NCBI RefSeq assembly: GCF_057098645.1
Contig: NZ_CM169472.1
DNA length: 64,000 nucleotides
Strand: one strand, 5' to 3'
Shown here: piece after piece, positions 40,790-50,346 of the stretch
How positions within the stretch are numbered: position 1 is the stretch's first letter
Layout: each line of letters starts with the position of its first letter
Translations under genes and position numbers: made by a program
Notes under the pieces: generated by a model
Seen by the model: only the letters and a program-made list of their open reading frames with translations
Told to the model about the DNA's origin: nothing
The model's database searches: none

Positions 40790-41497
40790 ATGAAACCCGT
40801 CGTGCTGGTGGTGGATGATGACACGGCTATCTGCGCACTGTTGCAGGACGTGTTAAGTGAACATGTCTTTACGGTTTCAGTCTGCCATACCGGACAGGAG
40901 GCCATATTGCGTATTGAGGGCGATCCTGACATTGCGCTGGTGGTGCTGGATATGATGCTACCCGATACCAACGGCCTGAGGGTATTGCAGCAAATCCAGA
41001 AACTGCGTCCGACATTGCCGGTGGTGATGTTGACCGGCATGGGCAGTGAGTCTGATGTGGTGGTCGGGCTGGAAATGGGCGCGGATGATTACATCTGCAA
41101 ACCGTTCACCCCGCGGGTGGTGGTCGCACGACTGAAAGCGGTGTTGCGACGGGTTGGTGCGCTGGCGGTTAATGACGAGAAAAGCGCCGGGCTGTCATTC
41201 AATGGCTGGTATCTCGATACCATGCGCTGCCAGTTGCACAATCCGCTTCAGCAACATGTCGAGTTAACTCAGGGCGAATATGGCTTGTTACTGGCACTGG
41301 CGCAAAACGCGCGTCGGGTATTGAGCCGCGAGCAGTTGCTGGCGTTCACCCACAGCGACAGCGTGGAGGTGTTTGATCGCACCATCGACGTATTAATCAT
41401 GCGCTTACGACGCAAAATCGAACTCAACCCGCATCAGCCGATGTTGATTAAAACTCTGCGCGGTCTGGGGTATGTCTTCGCTGCCGACGTGCATTAA
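40790..41497 (+). CDS. OmpR/PhoB-family response regulator (receiver plus winged-helix DNA-binding domain)
   Basis: MKPVVLVVDDD..., phospho-acceptor Asp in VVLDMMLPD, conserved Lys in YICKPF, C-terminal LIKTLRGLGYVF winged helix. Start trimmed to the ATG preceded by GGAG. Confidence 0.85.
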   Translation: MKPVVLVVDDDTAICALLQDVLSEHVFTVSVCHTGQEAILRIEGDPDIALVVLDMMLPDTNGLRVLQQIQKLRPTLPVVMLTGMGSESDVVVGLEMGADDYICKPFTPRVVVARLKAVLRRVGALAVNDEKSAGLSFNGWYLDTMRCQLHNPLQQHVELTQGEYGLLLALAQNARRVLSREQLLAFTHSDSVEVFDRTIDVLIMRLRRKIELNPHQPMLIKTLRGLGYVFAADVH

Positions 41498-42495
41498 TCC
41501 GACATTTCTGTTTGCAGCTCTTCCAGCGTTTTCGCCCCGTCGATGGCATTGGCGCATAACAGGCTTGCCCGCGCGCAGGCGTGTGCCAGTTTGATGCTCT
41601 CGGTAAGCGTCCAGCGTTCATGGCAGCCATATAAAAATCCGGCACAAAATGCATCGCCCGCGCCGACGCTGCCGATAATTTCCCGTTGTTCTAACTTTTG
41701 CGAAGGGATCCACACGCTGCCCTGTTCTGGGGTCTCTCCCCACGCCCCTTCCGGGCAGTGGATCACCACCCGCTGGCGCACGCCCGCATCTAACAGTTCA
41801 CGCGCGGCGGCAGCAATATGCGCGATATGCGGTTCGCCGTTGGGTAACCGAATTTCCAGCCCGCTAAACTCCCCGGCCTCCAGTTCGTTAATTACCAGAT
41901 AATCCAGATGGCGCAACGCGGGCAGCACCAGCGGCTGATAACGCGGATCGCCCTTACGGGAGACCAGGTCGAGTGAGGTTTCAAAGCCAGTATCACGCAT
42001 TTGCGCCAGCAGGCGTGCGCTACGGGTGCCGTAAACATCGTCCGGCATATCCAGGCTGTCGAGCAACAGTAAATAGCCGAGATGGAAAATCTTCATGGTG
42101 TTATCGAGCTGATCGAACGCCGGAAGATCCAAAAGTCTGTTTGCACCCGGCGAATGGAAAAACGTCCGCTGCCCGCTTGGGTCTGTCATCACCTGCGACA
42201 TCGACGTCGGGGCAAAGGTAGTGCGCTGCACATGCTGACGATTGACGTGATATTGCTCAAGCATCGCCATGATGTAATCGCCGTCGCTGTCCTGACCGAT
42301 TAGCCCAACCGCCTGTAACGGCAGCCCGGTGCGCATTTTCGCCAGCGTCAGCAGGACGTTAAGCGGCGCACCGCCGGTGGAGCGTTCGCTGTGGGTGATC
42401 TCCGCCAGCCAGCCGCGCTCTGGCCACTGGATAATCTGATGGACGTGGTCAACCAACATATTGCCTGCGGCGATAATCCCTTTACGCTCCATCAT
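41494..42495 (-). CDS. PfkB-family carbohydrate kinase
   Basis: 333 aa; ribokinase-fold signature near the C-terminus (GSVGAGDAFCAGFLYG) and N-terminal GG dipeptide region. Confidence 0.8.
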   Translation of the reverse strand: MMERKGIIAAGNMLVDHVHQIIQWPERGWLAEITHSERSTGGAPLNVLLTLAKMRTGLPLQAVGLIGQDSDGDYIMAMLEQYHVNRQHVQRTTFAPTSMSQVMTDPSGQRTFFHSPGANRLLDLPAFDQLDNTMKIFHLGYLLLLDSLDMPDDVYGTRSARLLAQMRDTGFETSLDLVSRKGDPRYQPLVLPALRHLDYLVINELEAGEFSGLEIRLPNGEPHIAHIAAAARELLDAGVRQRVVIHCPEGAWGETPEQGSVWIPSQKLEQREIIGSVGAGDAFCAGFLYGCHERWTLTESIKLAHACARASLLCANAIDGAKTLEELQTEMSD

Positions 42496-43352
42496 GCCTG
42501 CCCCGCACTGCCAAAAATACGCATCTGTTGTGCAACCGTATCGCTGATGGCGGCTTCCACTGCCAGCAGTAACTCGGCAAACTCGTCATACATCGGCTGA
42601 CGGTGCGCCATTCGGGCCTCAACGGCAGCCAGCGCCGCTTGCGACATGCCAGTGTAGAAATTGATTTTGTGGATACCCAGTTCGATGGCGCGGCGGAAAT
42701 CGGCATCGCTAATCCCTGAGCCGCCGTGTAATACCAGCGGGATAGCAGCCTGCTGGCGGATAGCGTCGAGGCGCGGGAAATCGAGTTTCGGTTCGCCGCG
42801 ATATTTGCCGTGTGCATTGCCAATCGCCACGGCCAACGCGTCAATGCCGGTACGGTCGACAAAATCACGCGCCAGTTGCGGATCGGTAAACAGGGATTCA
42901 TCGGCATGACCATAGAGCGCACCGCCTTCGTCGCTACCCACCGCGCCCAGTTCAGCTTCTACCGATACGCCAACGGCATGGCACATTTTCACCACTTCCC
43001 GCGTCTGGCGGACATTTTCTTCATACCCCAGCGTGGAGCCATCAAACATTACCGAGCTGAATCCCAGCCGCAACGCTTGCACCACCGATTCAAAATGCAG
43101 TCCGTGATCGAGATTTAACACCACCGGAATGGCATGACGCGCCGCTTCAAATTTCACTGTCTCGACCAGGGAATCCAGCGAGATATATTTAAAATGTACT
43201 TCGGCAATGTTGATAATAAAGGGCGAACGTTCTTGTCTGGCAGCAGCAAACAAGGCGCGTAAAAAGTGCGAGTCCAGCACATTAAACGCACCTAACGAAT
43301 AGTGATGTTCGCGGGCATGTGCCAGCCCTTCAGCGAGACAAATCAATGGCAT
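42492..43352 (-). CDS. Class II (metal-dependent) ketose-phosphate aldolase, FbaA/GatY/KbaY family
   Basis: 286 aa; N-terminal MPLI...LAHAREHHYSLGAFNV, LNLDHG and LHGGSG motifs typical of class II TIM-barrel aldolases. Confidence 0.8.
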   Translation of the reverse strand: MPLICLAEGLAHAREHHYSLGAFNVLDSHFLRALFAAARQERSPFIINIAEVHFKYISLDSLVETVKFEAARHAIPVVLNLDHGLHFESVVQALRLGFSSVMFDGSTLGYEENVRQTREVVKMCHAVGVSVEAELGAVGSDEGGALYGHADESLFTDPQLARDFVDRTGIDALAVAIGNAHGKYRGEPKLDFPRLDAIRQQAAIPLVLHGGSGISDADFRRAIELGIHKINFYTGMSQAALAAVEARMAHRQPMYDEFAELLLAVEAAISDTVAQQMRIFGSAGQA

Positions 43353-43366
43353 AACGTTATCCTTAT

Positions 43367-44050
43367 TCAGCGGAACTGGCGGTATTCGTTACACAATACC
43401 AACTGTGCAGGTTCGTCTTCGTCAATCAGGTTGTAGCGGTCCAGTGGCTGTAAAAAGTGGTTATCGTGGTCGTCGTCATTGACAGAAGAGACTTCGCCAA
43501 CCAGAACATCGCCAAAGCCGGTTTCCGCCCAAAAGCTGTGATACAGGCCGGGCGGCAGGCAGATACTTTCGCCGGGAGACAGGCGCAACTGAGTGCCTGC
43601 AGTATGTTTCTGGCGGCAGCCGTCTATCACCACCGTAATGTCACTATCAGCCGTTTGCTCGTTACTATCGGCATTCCACAGTTCAACAATTAAATTACCG
43701 CCGCCGCGATTGATAATGTCCTCACGCTTACGCCAGTGAAAATGCATTGGCGTGACCTGCGCATCGCGCACATGCATGATCTTCTCGGCGTAACATTTCA
43801 CATACGGCATTCCTTTTGCTGAGCCGTTACGTAGGGTAAACAGCGTCAGCCCGTGTGCTGCAAAGTTGTTGCGACCAAAAGCGGTAACATCCCAGCCGAG
43901 TTTAAGATCAAAAACCTCCTCCCACGCGGCGGTGTCGAGCTGCTGCCATTGAGCAGGCGAGAAACTGGCAAAGGGCGGCAGATGTACGTCATGTTGCGAA
44001 AAGAATTGCCGTGTATGGCCGAGAATGTCGTTTATAGCGGAGCGTTTCAT
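43367..44050 (-). CDS. Cupin-fold sugar isomerase, D-lyxose/D-mannose isomerase-like
   Basis: 227 aa; cupin metal-binding region (TPMHFHWRKREDIINRGGG ... PGLYHSFW); resembles the D-lyxose isomerase family as I recall it from a pathogenic E. coli enzyme. Confidence 0.65.
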   Translation of the reverse strand: MKRSAINDILGHTRQFFSQHDVHLPPFASFSPAQWQQLDTAAWEEVFDLKLGWDVTAFGRNNFAAHGLTLFTLRNGSAKGMPYVKCYAEKIMHVRDAQVTPMHFHWRKREDIINRGGGNLIVELWNADSNEQTADSDITVVIDGCRQKHTAGTQLRLSPGESICLPPGLYHSFWAETGFGDVLVGEVSSVNDDDHDNHFLQPLDRYNLIDEDEPAQLVLCNEYRQFR

Positions 44051-44104: not shown

Positions 44105-45046
44105 TTATTTCACCGTCCAGCCTTTGTAATTGCCGACGTTGTTTTTATCGATCATCGTCACCGGGATCAGCACCGGCTCTTTCGGCGCAGGTTTGCCCTG
44201 CAAAATGTCGTAGCCAATTTCCACCGCTTTCGCTGCCATCACCTGGGGATCTTGCGCCGGAGTAGCGACAAACAACGAGTTCTCACGCTTGAGCGCCTCT
44301 TCGGCGTCCGGGCTTCCGTCCACACCGACAATAAAGAACTCGTTACGTTGCGCCTGTTTTGCTGCCAGATCGGCACCGATTGCGGTGGGATCGTTAATCG
44401 CAAATACGCCGTCGATCTTCGGATTTGCCGCCAGCAGTCCCGTCATTACCTCCAGCCCGCCTTCACGACTGCCTTTCGCGTTCTGGTTGTCAGAGAGCAC
44501 TTTGATGTCAGGATGGCGTTTAAATTCAGTCTGGCATCCTTCGACGCGGTTTTGCACGGCGGATACCGGCGGGCCGTTGATGATCACCACATTGCCTTTG
44601 CCTTTCAGGCGATCGGTGATGTATTTACAGGCCATTTCGCCCGCCTGGGTGTTATCGGAGGTGATGGTGGCATCAGCACCTTCTGCCGCTACGTCAACCG
44701 CGACGACTACGATCCCGGCATCTTTCGCCCGTTTCACCGCCGGGCCGATCCCTTTTGAATCGGCAGCGTTGAGGATAATCATATCGACGTTAGCGGCGAT
44801 AAAGTTGTCTATCTGCGACACCTGCTGACCCAGATCGTAGCCGCTGGAAACCAGCGTCACTTTGACGTTATCGCCTGCCAGTTTGCGTGCTTCCAGCTCC
44901 GCGCCTTTGGTGATCTGCACGAAGAACGGGTTCGCCAGATCGCCCACCGTTACGCCTATCGATTTCAGTTCTTTCGCTTGGGCGAACGGTGCTGCGGCCA
45001 GCAGCGCGCCTGCACAGAGCGCGGTCACTAAGGGCTTCAATCTCAT
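44105..45046 (-). CDS. Periplasmic sugar-binding protein of an ABC transporter (RbsB/AlsB-like)
   Basis: 313 aa, signal peptide ending AQA, type I periplasmic binding fold (GVTVGDLANPFF..., GIVVVAVD). Confidence 0.85.
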   Translation of the reverse strand: MRLKPLVTALCAGALLAAAPFAQAKELKSIGVTVGDLANPFFVQITKGAELEARKLAGDNVKVTLVSSGYDLGQQVSQIDNFIAANVDMIILNAADSKGIGPAVKRAKDAGIVVVAVDVAAEGADATITSDNTQAGEMACKYITDRLKGKGNVVIINGPPVSAVQNRVEGCQTEFKRHPDIKVLSDNQNAKGSREGGLEVMTGLLAANPKIDGVFAINDPTAIGADLAAKQAQRNEFFIVGVDGSPDAEEALKRENSLFVATPAQDPQVMAAKAVEIGYDILQGKPAPKEPVLIPVTMIDKNNVGNYKGWTVK

Positions 45047-45064: not shown

Positions 45065-46039
45065 TTATGCACTTTGATGGTGTCGGGTACGGTATTTGTC
45101 GATCAGCACCGCAATGATGATCACCGCCCCTTTGATCACCAGTTGCCAGAAGTAAGAGACGCCCATTAAGGTCATGCCATTGTTGAGCGTGGCGATAATT
45201 AGCGCGCCGACCAGCGTGCCGGTGATGGTGCCGATGCCGCCGACAAAACTGGTGCCGCCGAGGATCACCGCTGCAATGGCATCCAGTTCGTAACCCATGC
45301 CTAAGTTGCCGTTGGCGCTGTACAGCCGTGAGGCGCTCATAATCCCGCCAAGCCCAGAAAGCAGGCCGCTCATGCCATAAACAAACAGCAGCACCAGCCA
45401 GACCTTAATGCCGGTAAGACGCGCCGCCTGCATATTGCCGCCGACGGCGTAGATATGAACGCCAAGCGTGGTGCGGCGTAGAATAAACCAGCACACCACG
45501 ATCACCGCCAGCGCAATCACCACCAGCCATGGGACCGGCCCGAGATAGTTGTTGCCTATCCACTCGAAATTAATGTTGGAGTTGATAACCGTGGTGCCGT
45601 CCGCCAGCAGATACGCCGCCCCGCGCAGCGCCGTATAGGTGCCAAGCGTAACGATAAACGGTGGCAATCCGGCAAAGGCCACCAGCGCGCCGTTGAACAG
45701 CCCCAGCAGCAGGCCGAGCATCAGCGCTGCCGGGATCGACAGCATGGCGAACTCAGGGCTAAGGGAGACGACCATCGCCGCCACCGCTGTGGTGCCGAGG
45801 ATCGAACCCACGGAAAGATCGATCCCGCCGGTCAAAATGATGAAGGTCATCCCCGCGGCCAGAACAATGTTGATCGATGCCTGGCGGGTAATATTCAGCA
45901 GGTTGCTTTCGGTAAAAAAGTTTGGCGCGATAAAGCCAAATACCGCCACGATCAGAATCAAAATGGGCAAGATGCCGACCGTTTGCATCAGATCGCTCAT
46001 CAGCATTTTTTTGGCAGAGGTTTTTGCAGAGGTCGTCAT
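45065..46039 (-). CDS. ABC sugar transporter permease (RbsC-like)
   Basis: 324-aa polytopic membrane protein; 4-bp overlap with the upstream ATPase gene. Confidence 0.85.
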
Positions 46040-47556
46040 GAGGTTACCGCCTGGGAATGGGCGTCGTTGACGCCAGTCGCTAAGGTCATAATGTTTTCCT
46101 GGGTGATGTTTTTGCCGTTTAACTCACCGGCAATGCTGCCTTCGCGCATCACATAGACGCGATCGCTCATTCCCACTATCTCCGGCAGTTCGCTGGAGAT
46201 CATCAGGATCGCCACGCCCTTGCGCGCCATCTCGTTCATGATCCGGTAGATCTCACTTTTGGCGCCAACGTCCACGCCGCGGGTGGGTTCATCGAGCAGT
46301 AAAATGCGCGGGCCAATCGCCACCCAGCGGGAGATCAACAGTTTTTGCTGATTGCCGCCGGAAAGCCCGCCCGCGCGTACCTGGGCATGAGGCACGCGAA
46401 TGTTGAGCAACTTGATGGCGTCATCGGAAATGGTTTGCGCTTTTTTGCGATTGAGCATTCCCCAGCTGGCATCGCGCTCCAGGGTTGCCATGGTGATGTT
46501 TTCGGCTGCTGCCATTTCAAGGAATAAGCCTTGTTCTTTGCGGTTTTCGGTGAGAAAACCAATGCCAAGATCGATGGCTTCGCGCGGGGAGTGGATCACC
46601 ACCGGTTCACCATCGACTTCAATCATTCCGCCTGTCGCTTTCCGCACGCCGAAGATCAACTGCGCCAGTTCGGAACGTCCGGCTCCTACCAGCCCGGCGA
46701 GGCCGACAATTTCGCCGGAACGCACCAGCAGGCTACTCGGCTGGACTTTGCCACCGTCGGTCAGGTGGTGAACATTCAGGCGGGCTTTGCCGAGCGGGAT
46801 ATCGCGCTCTTTATTGAACAGATCGCTCAGTGGCCTGCCGACCATCATCCGCACCAGCTCCCCGGCATTGAGGTTATCGCGGGTCAGGCTGCCAACGTAT
46901 TGCCCGTCGCGCAGCACGCTGACGCGATCGGAAAGCTCATACACTTCCGCCATACGGTGGCTGATGTAGATAATCGCCATCCCTTCATCGCGCAGCCGCA
47001 TAATCAGTTCAAACAGACGGTGAGTTTCACGGGAGGAGAGGGCAGCGGTGGGTTCGTCCATCACCAGAATGCGGCTGTTGCGATGCAGCGCGCGGGCGAT
47101 TTCGACCTGCTGTTGCTCGGCAATGGTCAGCATCATGACTTTATCGCTGGCGTTAAACTGCGCGCCGAGGCGGTCGATCACTCTTTGCGCCTGCACCAGC
47201 ATCTCTTTACGCTGCACCAGCCCGCCGTGGGAAAGCTCGCTACCGAGAAAAATATTTTCTGCCACCGTCAAATTGGGTGCCAGCTGCATCTCCTGATAAA
47301 TCAGCGTAATACCGGCACTTAAGGCATCTTTTGGCGTGCGAATGTGAAAGGGCTTGCCGTCTATGAGGATCTCGCCGCTGGTGGCGGTATACGCCCCCGC
47401 CAGCACCTTCATCAGCGTGCTTTTTCCCGCGCCGTTTTCCCCCATCAGGGCATGGATCTCGCCAGGGTAGACCGTCAAATCCACCCCTTTGAGCGCATAA
47501 AATTTGCCGAAGGCTTTGGCAATATTGCGCATCTCCAGAACTGGCCTGCTGTTCAT
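46036..47556 (-). CDS. ABC sugar transporter ATPase, tandem nucleotide-binding domains (RbsA-like)
   Basis: Two Walker A sites ([20 protein letters not shown]) and two signature motifs (LSSRE-like, LSGGNQQK); start trimmed to [16 protein letters not shown] with GGAG RBS. Confidence 0.85.
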
Positions 47557-47669
47557 GGTGGACTCCTGCGAGGTTGTCGATATCAGCACTCCATCACAGG
47601 AAAGTAAATGCAAAATGTCAGAAGCCGTTCATATTTGTCATATTGCGATTTTTCTTCACGGAGCGTGAT

Positions 47670-49934
47670 ATGGCGCACCCCGGACGTCACTTTTTTGCCA
47701 GCGCGCGCGGGCGATTGCTGCTTTTGAATTTGCTGGTGGTGGCGGTGACGTTGATGGTCAGCGGCGTGGCGGTAATGGGCTTTCGTCATGCCAGCCAGAT
47801 GCAGGAGCTGGTGCAGCAGCAAACGGTGGATGATATGACCGGCAGCCTGAATCTGGCGCGCGACACGGCAAACGTGGCAACGGCGGCGGTGCGATTGTCG
47901 CAGGTGGTGGGAGCGCTGGAATATAAAGGCGAAGCCGAGCGGTTGCAGGAGACACAGCGGGCATTAAAAAGCTCGCTTGCACAACTGGCGAACGCGCCTT
48001 TAGCGCAGCAGGAAGCCGGGCTGGTGACGCGCATCATCACGCGTAGCAACGAACTGCAAACCAGCGTCGGCGGTATGCTGGAGCGCGGGCAAAGGCGGCA
48101 TCTGGAGCGCAACGCGCTGTTAAGTTCGCTGTATCAAAACTTAAGTTATCTGCGGCATCTGCAAAAAGTCACTCACGCGCAAGATGATATTTTGCTTAAC
48201 GAGATGAACCGACTAATTGTTGCCGCTATTGCCACCCCCGCGCCGCAGGCGATTATTCATCAACTGGTCGGGGTAATGTCTGCGTTGCCGACCCACAGCG
48301 ATACGCCATTGGTTAATACGTTACTCAATGATTTCAATGATGAAATGCGTAAACTCGCGCCGCTTTCTGCCGCTCTGGAGCAAAGCGATCTGGCAATCAG
48401 CTGGTATATGTTTCACATCAAAGCGCTGGTGGCGATCCTCAATGGCGACATCAACCGTTACGCCGAACAGGTGGCGACGCTCTCCGGTCAGCGTGTGGCG
48501 CAAAGTTACCAGGATTTGCGCTCCGGCGAGAGGGTGATCATGATTTTCGCCCTGTTAGCGGTGGTGATCACCGCGTTTGCCGGCTGGTATATCTATCGCA
48601 ACCTCGGCACTAACCTGACGGCGATTTCCCGCGCCATGAGCCGCCTGGCGCACGGCGAAGCGGACGTCACTTTTCCGGCGTTACAGCGGCGTGATGAGTT
48701 GGGTGAACTGGCGCGCGCCTTTAACGTTTTTGCCCGCAATACCGAGTCACTCGAACGAACCTCACGGCTGCTAAAAGAGAAGACCACGCAGATGGAGATT
48801 GCCCAAACTGAGCGGCAGGGGTTGGAAGAGGCGCTATTACACAGCCAGAAACTGAAAGCGGTCGGGCAACTGACGGGCGGGCTGGCCCATGATTTTAATA
48901 ATCTGCTGGCGGTGATTATTGGCAGCCTGGAGCTGGTGAATCCGGACTCGCCAGACGCGCCGCGAATACAGCGGGCGCTGCAAGCTGCCGAACGTGGGGC
49001 GCTACTGACACAACGACTGCTGGCGTTTTCCCGCAAGCAGTCCTTACATCCGCAAGCCGTTGAACTGAAAACATTGCTGGAAGAGTTAAGCGAATTAATG
49101 CGCCACTCCTTACCGGCAACGCTGGCGCTGGAGATTGAAGCGCAGTCTCCGGCGTGGCCCGCGTGGATTGACATCAGCCAACTGGAAAATGCCATCATCA
49201 ACCTGGTGATGAACGCCCGTGACGCGATGGAAGGGCAGACGGGAATCATCAAAATTCGTACCTGGAATCAGCGCGTTACTCGCAGCAGTGGGCAGCGTCA
49301 GGACATGGTGGCACTGGAGGTCATCGATCATGGCAGCGGTATGTCGCAGGCGGTGAAAAGCCAGGTATTTGAGCCATTCTTTACCACCAAACAGACGGGC
49401 AGCGGCAGCGGGCTGGGGTTGTCGATGGTCTATGGTTTTGTGCGCCAGTCCGGTGGGCGCGTTGAAATTGAAAGCGCGCCGGGGCAGGGGACAACGGTCA
49501 GATTACAGCTTCCCCGCGCGCTGACGGCGGCGAAAAACCTATCGCCAGCGGCAGTAGAACAGGCTTCTGTCAGCGGCGATAAACTGGTGTTAGTGCTGGA
49601 AGATGAAGCCGCGGTGCGCCAGACCATCTGCGAACAGTTGCACCTGCTGGGCTATTTGACGCTGGAAGCAAGCAGCGGCGAACAGGCGCTGGATCTGCTG
49701 GCGGCATCAGCAGAAATCGATATTTTTATCAGCGATTTAATGCTCCCCGGCGGCATGAGCGGCGCAGAAGTGGTCAATGCGGCCCGCAAACTTTACCCGC
49801 ACCTGACGCTGCTACTCATCAGCGGTCAGGATTTACGCCCCAGCCATAACCCCGCGCTGCCAGACGTGGCGCTGTTGCGCAAACCCTTTACCCGTGCGCA
49901 GTTGGCGCAGGCGCTGGGGCAAATTGAGGGATGA
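47670..49934 (+). CDS. Hybrid sensor histidine kinase (periplasmic sensor, HAMP, HisKA, HATPase, C-terminal receiver)
   Basis: Start trimmed to ATG 47670 (MAHPGRHFF...); two TM segments flanking a roughly 270-aa helical periplasmic domain; H-box GGLAHDFNNLL; ATP lid DHGSGM, GSGLGLS; receiver with Asp in IFISDLMLPG. No HPt domain. Confidence 0.85.
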   Translation: MAHPGRHFFASARGRLLLLNLLVVAVTLMVSGVAVMGFRHASQMQELVQQQTVDDMTGSLNLARDTANVATAAVRLSQVVGALEYKGEAERLQETQRALKSSLAQLANAPLAQQEAGLVTRIITRSNELQTSVGGMLERGQRRHLERNALLSSLYQNLSYLRHLQKVTHAQDDILLNEMNRLIVAAIATPAPQAIIHQLVGVMSALPTHSDTPLVNTLLNDFNDEMRKLAPLSAALEQSDLAISWYMFHIKALVAILNGDINRYAEQVATLSGQRVAQSYQDLRSGERVIMIFALLAVVITAFAGWYIYRNLGTNLTAISRAMSRLAHGEADVTFPALQRRDELGELARAFNVFARNTESLERTSRLLKEKTTQMEIAQTERQGLEEALLHSQKLKAVGQLTGGLAHDFNNLLAVIIGSLELVNPDSPDAPRIQRALQAAERGALLTQRLLAFSRKQSLHPQAVELKTLLEELSELMRHSLPATLALEIEAQSPAWPAWIDISQLENAIINLVMNARDAMEGQTGIIKIRTWNQRVTRSSGQRQDMVALEVIDHGSGMSQAVKSQVFEPFFTTKQTGSGSGLGLSMVYGFVRQSGGRVEIESAPGQGTTVRLQLPRALTAAKNLSPAAVEQASVSGDKLVLVLEDEAAVRQTICEQLHLLGYLTLEASSGEQALDLLAASAEIDIFISDLMLPGGMSGAEVVNAARKLYPHLTLLLISGQDLRPSHNPALPDVALLRKPFTRAQLAQALGQIEG

Positions 49935-50346
49935 TTTTCAGAATTTATCAAGAGGCCTGAAGCAAATGTGCTGCTATTGTGAGCAATTCTGTTCTGAATG
50001 GGATATAAAAGGAATTATGCCAGTACTGACAAGAGGCGATTCACATATGATCGTGATGCCAACCACCTATAGCGATTTCAGTGTTTGTATTAGACACTGA
50101 ACAAGGGGCATTTTGGCCTTATGATGGCACGAAAGTGATCTACGATGGCGGTTGCATTCCGGAAGAGCGTATCTGGAGTATTTCACCGGATCAAAAATGT
50201 CATGGCATTGTGCTGGTGGCGGAAAATAAACAGCGAGCTAACCAGCTAATGGAAGAGTCTGCGCCTTACCGAATTTGAGATTACTCCGCTACTCCGGTCA
50301 TTCACACTCAACTAACGTTAAGCCAGTCCATCGCAGAGACTGGCTT

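Follow-up and report, generated by a model that had tools for sequence, protein, structure and literature searches.

The lmuKAI genes of E. coli island OI-167 belong to a published D-lyxose and D-mannose route and encode a putative ketose-1-phosphate aldolase

Between positions 41494 and 44050, the minus strand of the window (the whole stretch of DNA that was analysed, 64,000 nucleotides) carries genes for a PfkB-family kinase, for a class II aldolase and for an isomerase of the cupin D-lyxose/D-mannose type, which raises the question of which sugar is degraded by these enzymes and through which phosphorylated intermediate. The three co-directional open reading frames (41494-42495, 333 aa; 42492-43352, 286 aa; 43367-44050, 227 aa) fill this range exactly, and the stop of the aldolase gene overlaps the start of the kinase gene by 4 bp. 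The same three genes are annotated by RefSeq in E. coli O145:H28 genomes, with DNA 100% identical to the window; they are genuine genes and not chance reading frames. Considering this identity together with the insertion site of the island between yjcS and yjdP, an isomerase sharing 225 of 227 residues with the crystallised D-lyxose isomerase Z5688 (PDB 3KMH/3MPB) and an exact LmvR box, the genes are lmuK, lmuA and lmuI, the 3' end of lmuXYZIAK, an operon carried by island OI-167. The layout agrees with the published description of this operon, named lmuKAIZYX, and of its flanking two-component system LmvK/LmvR (Yang et al., mBio 2023, PMC10128022), which is the RbfS/RbfR system of Liu et al. 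(PNAS 2022, PMC9860305). Genes, gene order, yjcS/yjdP insertion site and LmvR box are all as in OI-167 of E. coli O157:H7 EDL933 (Z5684-Z5692), with no substantive difference; the DNA is about 99.5% identical to that of O157:H7, and the window carries the O145:H28-type allele, in which LmuI has the conservative substitutions S153T and A177T.

The remaining operon genes, also on the minus strand, encode an ABC importer. The first gene, lmuX (46036-47556, with the RefSeq start at the ATG at 47556), codes for an ATPase with two ATP-binding domains and AraG/XylG/RbsA-like matches, and lmuY (45065-46039) for a permease, according to RbsC-like NCBIfam matches and the RefSeq annotation. The product of lmuZ (44105-45046) is an RbsB-like periplasmic sugar-binding protein, which matches PDB 4RWE with an E-value of 3.7e-167 and has RbsB-type NCBIfam matches below cut-off. 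Upstream of lmuX, the direct repeat ATATGA-N3-ATATGA of the LmvR binding site matches exactly at one place only in the window (ATATGACAAATATGA, 47629-47643, minus strand), compared with 0.13 expected by chance; in the lmuX promoter, the published LmvR footprint spans -41 to -62 (PMC10128022). Divergent from lmuX lies lmvK/rbfS (Z5692; 47670-49934, plus strand), coding for a hybrid sensor histidine kinase with HAMP, HisKA, HATPase_c and Response_reg domains. At the other end, lmvR/rbfR (Z5684; 40790-41497, plus strand), a mapped RefSeq CDS with OmpR/PhoB-family NCBIfam matches, codes for an OmpR/PhoB-type response regulator and is convergent with lmuK, their 3' ends overlapping by 4 bp (PMC10128022 and PMC9860305 name both regulators). 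No Pfam family matches the periplasmic portion of LmvK, and LmuZ resembles TorT only weakly (41.9 bits); that LmvK detects the binding protein in the manner of TorS/TorT was set aside as speculation.

The isomerase LmuI (Z5688) was compared with the Gram-negative type of the family (NF051472, "D-lyxose/D-mannose isomerase"; Pfam Lyx_isomer, PF07385) and scores 438.4 bits against the NF051472 cut-off of 350. Its translation contains H103, H105, E110 and H171, which we take to be the His, His, Glu and His residues that bind the cupin metal in the 3KMH structure. The sequence-only reading of the window had proposed import of an aldose, isomerisation, phosphorylation by the PfkB kinase and cleavage by the class II aldolase. 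Yang et al. draw precisely this model in their Fig. 3A (PMC10128022), and the comparative genomics below is in agreement with it; the sugar route is thus genuine but already published. According to that work, LmvK/LmvR switch the co-transcribed lmuKAIZYX genes on in response to D-lyxose and D-mannose via the direct-repeat box upstream of lmuX, LmuXYZ takes up both sugars, and LmuI, a Mn-dependent enzyme, converts them to D-xylulose and D-fructose, respectively (PMC10128022). Both PMC10128022 and PMC6746899 cite activity of Z5688 towards D-lyxose and D-mannose, the latter being the source for its kinetics.

Growth on lyxose requires lmuI and lmuZYX, while lmuK and lmuA are dispensable (PMC10128022). 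On the D-lyxose branch the island would therefore supply only transport and isomerisation, and D-xylulose would enter the pentose phosphate pathway through the host xylulokinase. This fits the earlier argument that xylulose would normally be handled by an FGGY kinase, as does the operon of a metagenomic relative (kinase 51% identical), in which the same module includes its own xylulokinase adjoining the isomerase (TIGR01312, 576.7 bits; cut-off 380). The further step of that argument, that the substrate is a hexose or deoxy-hexose rather than plain D-lyxose, did not survive, as D-lyxose both induces the operon and supports growth through it. Nor is there support for a rare sugar as the main substrate, the published hexose substrate being ordinary D-mannose; a manA mutant overexpressing LmvR depends on lmuKAIZYX for growth on mannose (PMC10128022). 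On this hexose branch, LmuK would form a ketose 1-phosphate by phosphorylating the primary hydroxyl adjoining the keto group, and LmuA would split this monophosphate into DHAP and an unphosphorylated aldehyde (D-glyceraldehyde in the case of fructose 1-phosphate). We give a probability of roughly three in four to this explanation as a whole, in which the lmu genes of OI-167 act with the host xylulokinase on lyxose, and LmuK as a C1 kinase with LmuA as a monophosphate aldolase on the hexose.

The lyxo configuration rule is the reason for considering, in addition, that the true substrate might be another lyxo-configured sugar (D-rhamnose or another 6-deoxy sugar, D-manno-heptose leading to sedoheptulose, or L-gulose), with D-lyxose and D-mannose as side activities. 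The Km of LmuI for mannose is high (19.8 mM), the operon adds little to growth on mannose when LmvR is not overexpressed and little to colonisation, and D-lyxose is rare in nature (PMC10128022); moreover, the kinase fits no characterised equivalog and the aldolase resembles YdjI, which uses a long-chain ketose 1-phosphate. Such a substrate is nevertheless very improbable, considering that the cognate sensor mediates induction by both lyxose and mannose, that LmuXYZ is about 60% identical to a Herbaspirillum mannose ABC transporter (Yang et al., PMC10128022), that GH92 alpha-mannosidases lie beside the kinase and isomerase genes in Bacteroidales, and that none of the 84 loci has a neighbouring gene for deoxy sugars or heptoses. 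The suggestions of talose, tagatose or deoxy sugars in the sequence-only reading likewise found no support; for a tagatose/talose route, LmuK reaches 25.7 bits where the tagatose kinase model requires 420, and the scores of LmuA stay below the GatY and KbaY cut-offs.

Residues 29-322 of LmuK (Z5685) match Pfam PfkB (PF00294) over the full length of the domain with an E-value of 1.3e-35, and in an alignment of 15 family members (A2) G278, G280 and D281 of the GAGD motif are invariant and A279 nearly so. LmuK falls below every NCBIfam PfkB equivalog cut-off, the best of its 14 matches reaching 73.6 bits against 300; the equivalogs compared comprised ribokinase, fructokinase, 1-phosphofructokinase, tagatose kinase, IolC and KdgK. 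Its top PDB match is the structure of YihV, at a weak 4.7e-10, and the PDB sequence matches do not discriminate between C1 and C6 kinases. The purified enzyme phosphorylates fructose in vitro in a coupled ADP assay (PMC10128022), and D-mannose to D-fructose, one of the options listed in the sequence-only reading, is on this account the experimentally supported hexose branch.

LmuA, a predicted zinc enzyme, has the F_bP_aldolase fold shared by the class II FBP/TBP aldolases, several of which are its homologues in the PDB, and is 35-44% identical to GatY, KbaY and class IIb enzymes and 23% identical to FbaA; it scores 572.8 bits against NCBIfam NF005284 (cut-off 406), which carries the curated name "ketose 1,6-bisphosphate aldolase". 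In alignment A1 it retains the equivalents of FbaA D109, H110, E182, H226, H264 and N286, the active-site and zinc-binding residues. Two further positions differ: S61 and R331 of FbaA, which we take, from the literature on FbaA mutagenesis and structure, to be the ligands of the C6 (distal) phosphate, are replaced by Ala50 and Ala259 in LmuA and in three orthologues. All six bisphosphate aldolases in the alignment (FbaA, GatY, KbaY and three class IIb FBAs) carry Ser or Thr at the first position and, at the second, the arginine of the DPR motif, while YdjI has Gly and Leu, respectively. Residues 252 to 277 of LmuA contain no Lys or Arg, and the aldolases adjoining LmuK-family kinases in Clostridia likewise have no DPR motif. 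Since the catalytic machinery is kept and both distal-phosphate residues of the bisphosphate aldolases are absent, LmuA is read as a probable monophosphate aldolase. A route via xylulose 1,5-bisphosphate, with xylulokinase followed by LmuK, is implausible, and the ligands for a distal phosphate are missing from LmuA.

The alternative takes LmuK for an ordinary fructose 6-kinase and LmuA for a conventional FBP aldolase, so that mannose would pass through fructose to fructose 6-phosphate and, by the host PfkA, to FBP, with LmuA duplicating FbaA. The name of NF005284, the approximately 40% identity of LmuA to class IIb FBP aldolases and its comparison with the S. aureus FBA by Yang et al. (PMC10128022) are in line with this, and several Bacteroidales loci encode kinase and isomerase with no aldolase, which fits a fructose 6-kinase supplying glycolysis directly. 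On the other hand, the Arg and Ser of every aligned bisphosphate aldolase are missing from LmuA and all its orthologues, and a redundant FBA would leave unexplained a tight, translationally coupled aldolase-kinase pair that is kept across phyla. The replacement of LmuA by DhnA-type class I aldolases in some loci also speaks against it, and we regard this alternative as distinctly unlikely.

Conservation of the eight-gene module extends to Citrobacter, Enterobacter/Lelliottia, Leclercia and Serratia, and kinase, isomerase and aldolase are found together again in distant phyla. Within 6 kb of the kinase gene in 77 non-enterobacterial loci, a lyxose-type isomerase is encoded in 17, a class II aldolase in 20 and a DhnA-type class I aldolase in 5; isomerase and aldolase are both present in 11 of them. 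Neither partner is found in 46 of the 77, and the wider kinase family is therefore not uniform. Taken together, the alignment and the recurrent grouping of the three genes favour LmuA being a ketose-1-phosphate aldolase.

The same logic is represented in E. coli K-12 by YdjH and YdjI, a PfkB kinase and a class II aldolase encoded by adjacent genes of one operon, as are LmuK and LmuA: phosphorylation next to the keto group is followed by cleavage to DHAP and an aldehyde, and YdjI is named a ketose-1-phosphate aldolase in RefSeq. YdjI is 40% identical to LmuA, and both are without the equivalents of FbaA S61 and R331. YdjH, however, is only 24% identical to LmuK, the ydj cluster has no isomerase gene, and the RefSeq substrates are L-glycero-L-galacto-octuluronate and its 1-phosphate, compared with fructose for LmuK; with these identities and other neighbours, the two pairs are not orthologous. 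In the sulfoquinovose EMP pathway, an isomerase (YihS), a PfkB kinase acting at C1 (YihV) and an aldolase yielding DHAP and an unphosphorylated aldehyde (YihT) follow the order proposed for LmuI, LmuK and LmuA, although the sequence similarity of YihV to LmuK is marginal. That pathway also differs in the fold of its isomerase, its class I aldolase and its sulfonated substrate. IolC and IolJ are a further such pair, and since they and YdjH/YdjI already work in this manner, a ketose-1-phosphate route would not surprise specialists. What is new here is the lack in LmuA, as judged by alignment, of both presumed distal-phosphate ligands, and the recurrence of kinase, isomerase and aldolase in distant phyla.

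A wider proposal, to which we give slightly less than even odds, is that LmuK and LmuA constitute a natural bacterial route of ketohexokinase and ketose-1-phosphate aldolase comparable to mammalian fructolysis, possibly also cleaving xylulose 1-phosphate to DHAP and glycolaldehyde, that the module is widespread among bacteria of gut and soil, and that NF005284 is misnamed. Such a route would be the natural equivalent of the xylulose-1-phosphate pathway that has been engineered. No papers were returned when the literature was searched for a fructose-1-phosphate aldolase with a ketohexokinase in bacteria, and nothing relevant was found under xylulose 1-phosphate or YdjI. If LmuA is a ketose-1-phosphate aldolase, the widely propagated name "ketose 1,6-bisphosphate aldolase" would be wrong, and bacteria would possess a fructolysis-like bypass of phosphofructokinase, of use for annotation and engineering.

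For the biology of EHEC, the published interest of the island lies in its two-component system, which couples the detection of both mannose and riboflavin to type III secretion. It could be asked whether the metabolic genes are largely vestigial in EHEC, the island being kept for a system that turns on the type III secretion genes of the LEE on sensing mannose and/or riboflavin. In the mouse, lmvK and lmvR matter for colonisation while lmuKAIZYX do not (PMC10128022), and LmvK/LmvR have been reported, as RbfS/RbfR, to be a riboflavin sensor activating ler (PMC9860305). We consider this somewhat unlikely; it is in any case compatible with the C1 kinase and monophosphate aldolase explanation and does not replace it. 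Against it, all six lmu genes are intact in the window, and the complete module is also conserved in enterobacteria that are not pathogenic. Among 5426 complete E. coli genomes, 410 carry the lmuKAI block, and in 393 of these carriers its identity is 99% or higher.

The region 41494-44050 corresponds exactly to three open reading frames on the minus strand, which code for a PfkB-family kinase (lmuK, 41494-42495, 333 aa; PF00294, E 1.3e-35), a class II aldolase (lmuA, 42492-43352, 286 aa; NF005284, 572.8 bits against a cut-off of 406) and a cupin D-lyxose/D-mannose isomerase (lmuI, 43367-44050, 227 aa; NF051472, 438 bits against a cut-off of 350). The start of lmuK and the stop of lmuA overlap by 4 bp. 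The reading frames and family-model matches thus confirm the three enzyme types that had been proposed from the sequence only. LmuI is identical at 225 of 227 positions to the D-lyxose isomerase Z5688 of E. coli O157:H7 (PDB 3KMH/3MPB) and, judging by this near identity, is the characterised enzyme. According to later papers citing it, Z5688 is Mn-dependent and has a mannose:lyxose kcat/Km ratio of 0.75. The binding protein encoded next to it, LmuZ (44105-45046), also has a very close solved homolog (PDB 4RWE, “sugar-binding transport protein”, E 3.7e-167).

The whole locus is already known from published work. Yang et al. (mBio 2023, PMC10128022) named the two-component system LmvK/LmvR and the six co-transcribed genes in between lmuKAIZYX, and their model (Fig. 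3A) has an aldose imported, isomerised by LmuI, phosphorylated by LmuK and cleaved by LmuA. The route suggested by the sequence-only reading is therefore the one already published and partly tested. The operon is induced by lyxose and mannose via LmvK/LmvR, and the LmvR footprint on the lmuX promoter, from -41 to -62, covers a direct repeat (ATATGA-N3-ATATGA; PMC10128022). This box has a single exact copy in the window (47629-47643), which lies upstream of where lmuX starts (47556). Growth on mannose depends on lmuKAIZYX only in a manA mutant overexpressing LmvR, and colonisation of mice does not need the operon (PMC10128022). The suggestion that the substrate is a hexose rather than plain D-lyxose holds in part. 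In a coupled ADP assay, purified LmuK phosphorylates fructose, and lmuK and lmuA are dispensable on D-lyxose, but D-lyxose is a genuine inducer and growth substrate, its use requiring oxygen, lmvK, lmvR, lmuI and lmuZYX (PMC10128022). No support was found for talose, tagatose or deoxy sugars as substrates.

What is left is a question of modest scope, namely whether the route passes through a ketose 1-phosphate. LmuA has the FBP/TBP aldolase fold, with homologs in the PDB, and was aligned with three orthologs (88, 71 and 68% identical), YdjI, GatY, KbaY and FbaA from E. coli, and three class IIb FBP aldolases whose sequences came from PDB alignments (eleven proteins in total). The positions of the active-site and zinc residues of FbaA (D109, H110, E182, H226, H264 and N286) are all conserved in LmuA. 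The ligands of the C6 phosphate in FbaA, as established by mutagenesis, are S61 and R331. At the first position, all six bisphosphate aldolases have Ser or Thr, while LmuA has Ala50 and YdjI has Gly; at the second, in the C-terminal “DPR” motif, all six have Arg, while LmuA and its orthologs have Ala (Ala259) and YdjI has Leu. There is no Lys or Arg in residues 252-277 of LmuA. YdjI, which is 40% identical to LmuA, is named octuluronate-1-phosphate aldolase in RefSeq, i.e. a monophosphate enzyme, and the DPR motif is also missing from the class II aldolases adjoining LmuK-family kinases in Clostridia. Taken together, the missing S61 and R331 equivalents, the likeness to YdjI and the DPR-less clostridial aldolases make a ketose 1-phosphate the likelier substrate of LmuA than a 1,6-bisphosphate; LmuA would then probably be a monophosphate aldolase, which makes its NCBI label, “ketose 1,6-bisphosphate aldolase”, doubtful. 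The sequence of LmuK does not discriminate between C1 and C6 phosphorylation: it falls far under all curated NCBIfam equivalog cut-offs, has only weak matches among PDB sequences (top E 4.7e-10) and is 24% identical to YdjH.

The alternative, that LmuK is a fructose 6-kinase, draws its main argument from relatives in other bacteria, since some Bacteroidales loci carry no aldolase at all, as such a kinase would allow. Scanning one genome per species gave 80 loci, and together with earlier loci the table holds 77 non-enterobacterial ones. Within 6 kb of the kinase, a lyxose-type isomerase (long or short) was found in 17 of the 77, a class II aldolase in 20 and a DhnA-type class I aldolase in 5; isomerase and aldolase occur together in 11, and neither occurs in 46. 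Some gene arrangements recur: Clostridia have kinase, short isomerase and class II aldolase, while Pedobacter, a Rhizobiaceae bacterium and Chthoniobacter have class I aldolase, oxidoreductase, isomerase and kinase. In another relative, the aldolase and kinase genes still overlap, but their partners differ. In Bacteroidales, kinase and isomerase lie beside GH92 alpha-mannosidases (564 bits against a cut-off of 250), which points to mannose as the sugar. The clostridial kinases also neighbor a PIG-L deacetylase, a NagB-like protein and a mannitol-1-phosphate-dehydrogenase-like protein, which would likewise yield a ketohexose. Seven loci from gut and rumen Clostridia (L027, L036, L065, L069, L079, L083 and L089) have the kinase in AraC-regulated clusters with these three neighbors and often a DPR-less class II aldolase; the clusters may encode an amino-sugar or hexitol route, so far uncharacterised, that finishes with the same two steps, kinase and aldolase. 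In a metagenomic relative (kinase 51% identical), the same module has a xylulokinase (TIGR01312, 576.7 bits against a cut-off of 380) between binding protein and isomerase. This fits the published growth on lyxose without LmuK and LmuA, from which we infer that xylulose goes to a xylulokinase encoded elsewhere in E. coli.

Closer to E. coli, Enterobacter sp. 638 (again near phnO-like and phnP-like genes), Citrobacter and Leclercia all retain the full module of eight genes, both regulators among them. Serratia plymuthica has the same module with the response regulator, the histidine kinase having no match above the coverage filter. LmuK identity is 69-89% across the enterobacterial loci L003 and L013-L018, and Kosakonia and Yokenella have kinase homologs of about 82-85% identity. 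These enterobacteria are likely donors of the module. According to a 2024 review, laterally acquired systems like RbfSR are missing in other intestinal bacteria; this is contradicted by L003 and L013-L018, with the module and both regulators in Citrobacter, Enterobacter/Lelliottia and Leclercia.

The regulators at 40790-41497 and 47670-49934 are one system with two names and two sets of signals, mannose and lyxose for LmvK/LmvR versus riboflavin for RbfS/RbfR. Under the latter name (Z5692/Z5684, island OI-167), Liu et al. (PNAS 2022, PMC9860305) described riboflavin sensing and activation of LEE genes; their text does not mention the sugar genes, and neither “riboflavin” nor “RbfS” appears in that of Yang et al. 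(PMC10128022). In the 2024 review, RbfSR and LmvKR are a single system for sensing riboflavin and mannose, the signals simply being merged. A Pfam search with the periplasmic part of LmvK gave no match, so either ligand might be sensed directly or by way of LmuZ.

About 9.3 kb around the three genes match E. coli O145:H28 chromosomes at 100% identity. Of 5426 complete E. coli genomes, 421 have this region, and in every one of them it is chromosomal. The RefSeq gene order is yjcS, response regulator, kinase, aldolase, isomerase, binding protein, permease, ATPase, hybrid histidine kinase, yjdP and phnP; in K-12 the allose genes occupy this site (PMC10128022). The literature limits the island to O157:H7, O145:H28 and O55:H7; the lmuK-lmuA-lmuI block is also carried, at 99.6-99.8% identity, by an O78 human isolate, a poultry-meat isolate, an APEC strain, a bovine strain and a second human isolate, and more diverged copies are present in strains from a pig (97.9%) and a goat (93%). 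The convergent lmuK and lmvR share 4 bp at their 3' ends (41494-41497), which leaves no space for an intervening terminator, so that transcription of the operon would enter lmvR antisense. Between lmvK and yjdP lies what RefSeq annotates as a pseudogene fragment of a GNAT acetyltransferase without its N-terminus (50075-50278), which may be a scar from the island insertion. Across the window, GC content is lowest (38.5%) at espX5 (16136-17428), which codes for a pentapeptide-repeat type III effector and lies between yjcE and actP; a second low-GC patch (41%) at 2-4 kb extends from tyrB to aphA and contains a frameshifted hypothetical gene.
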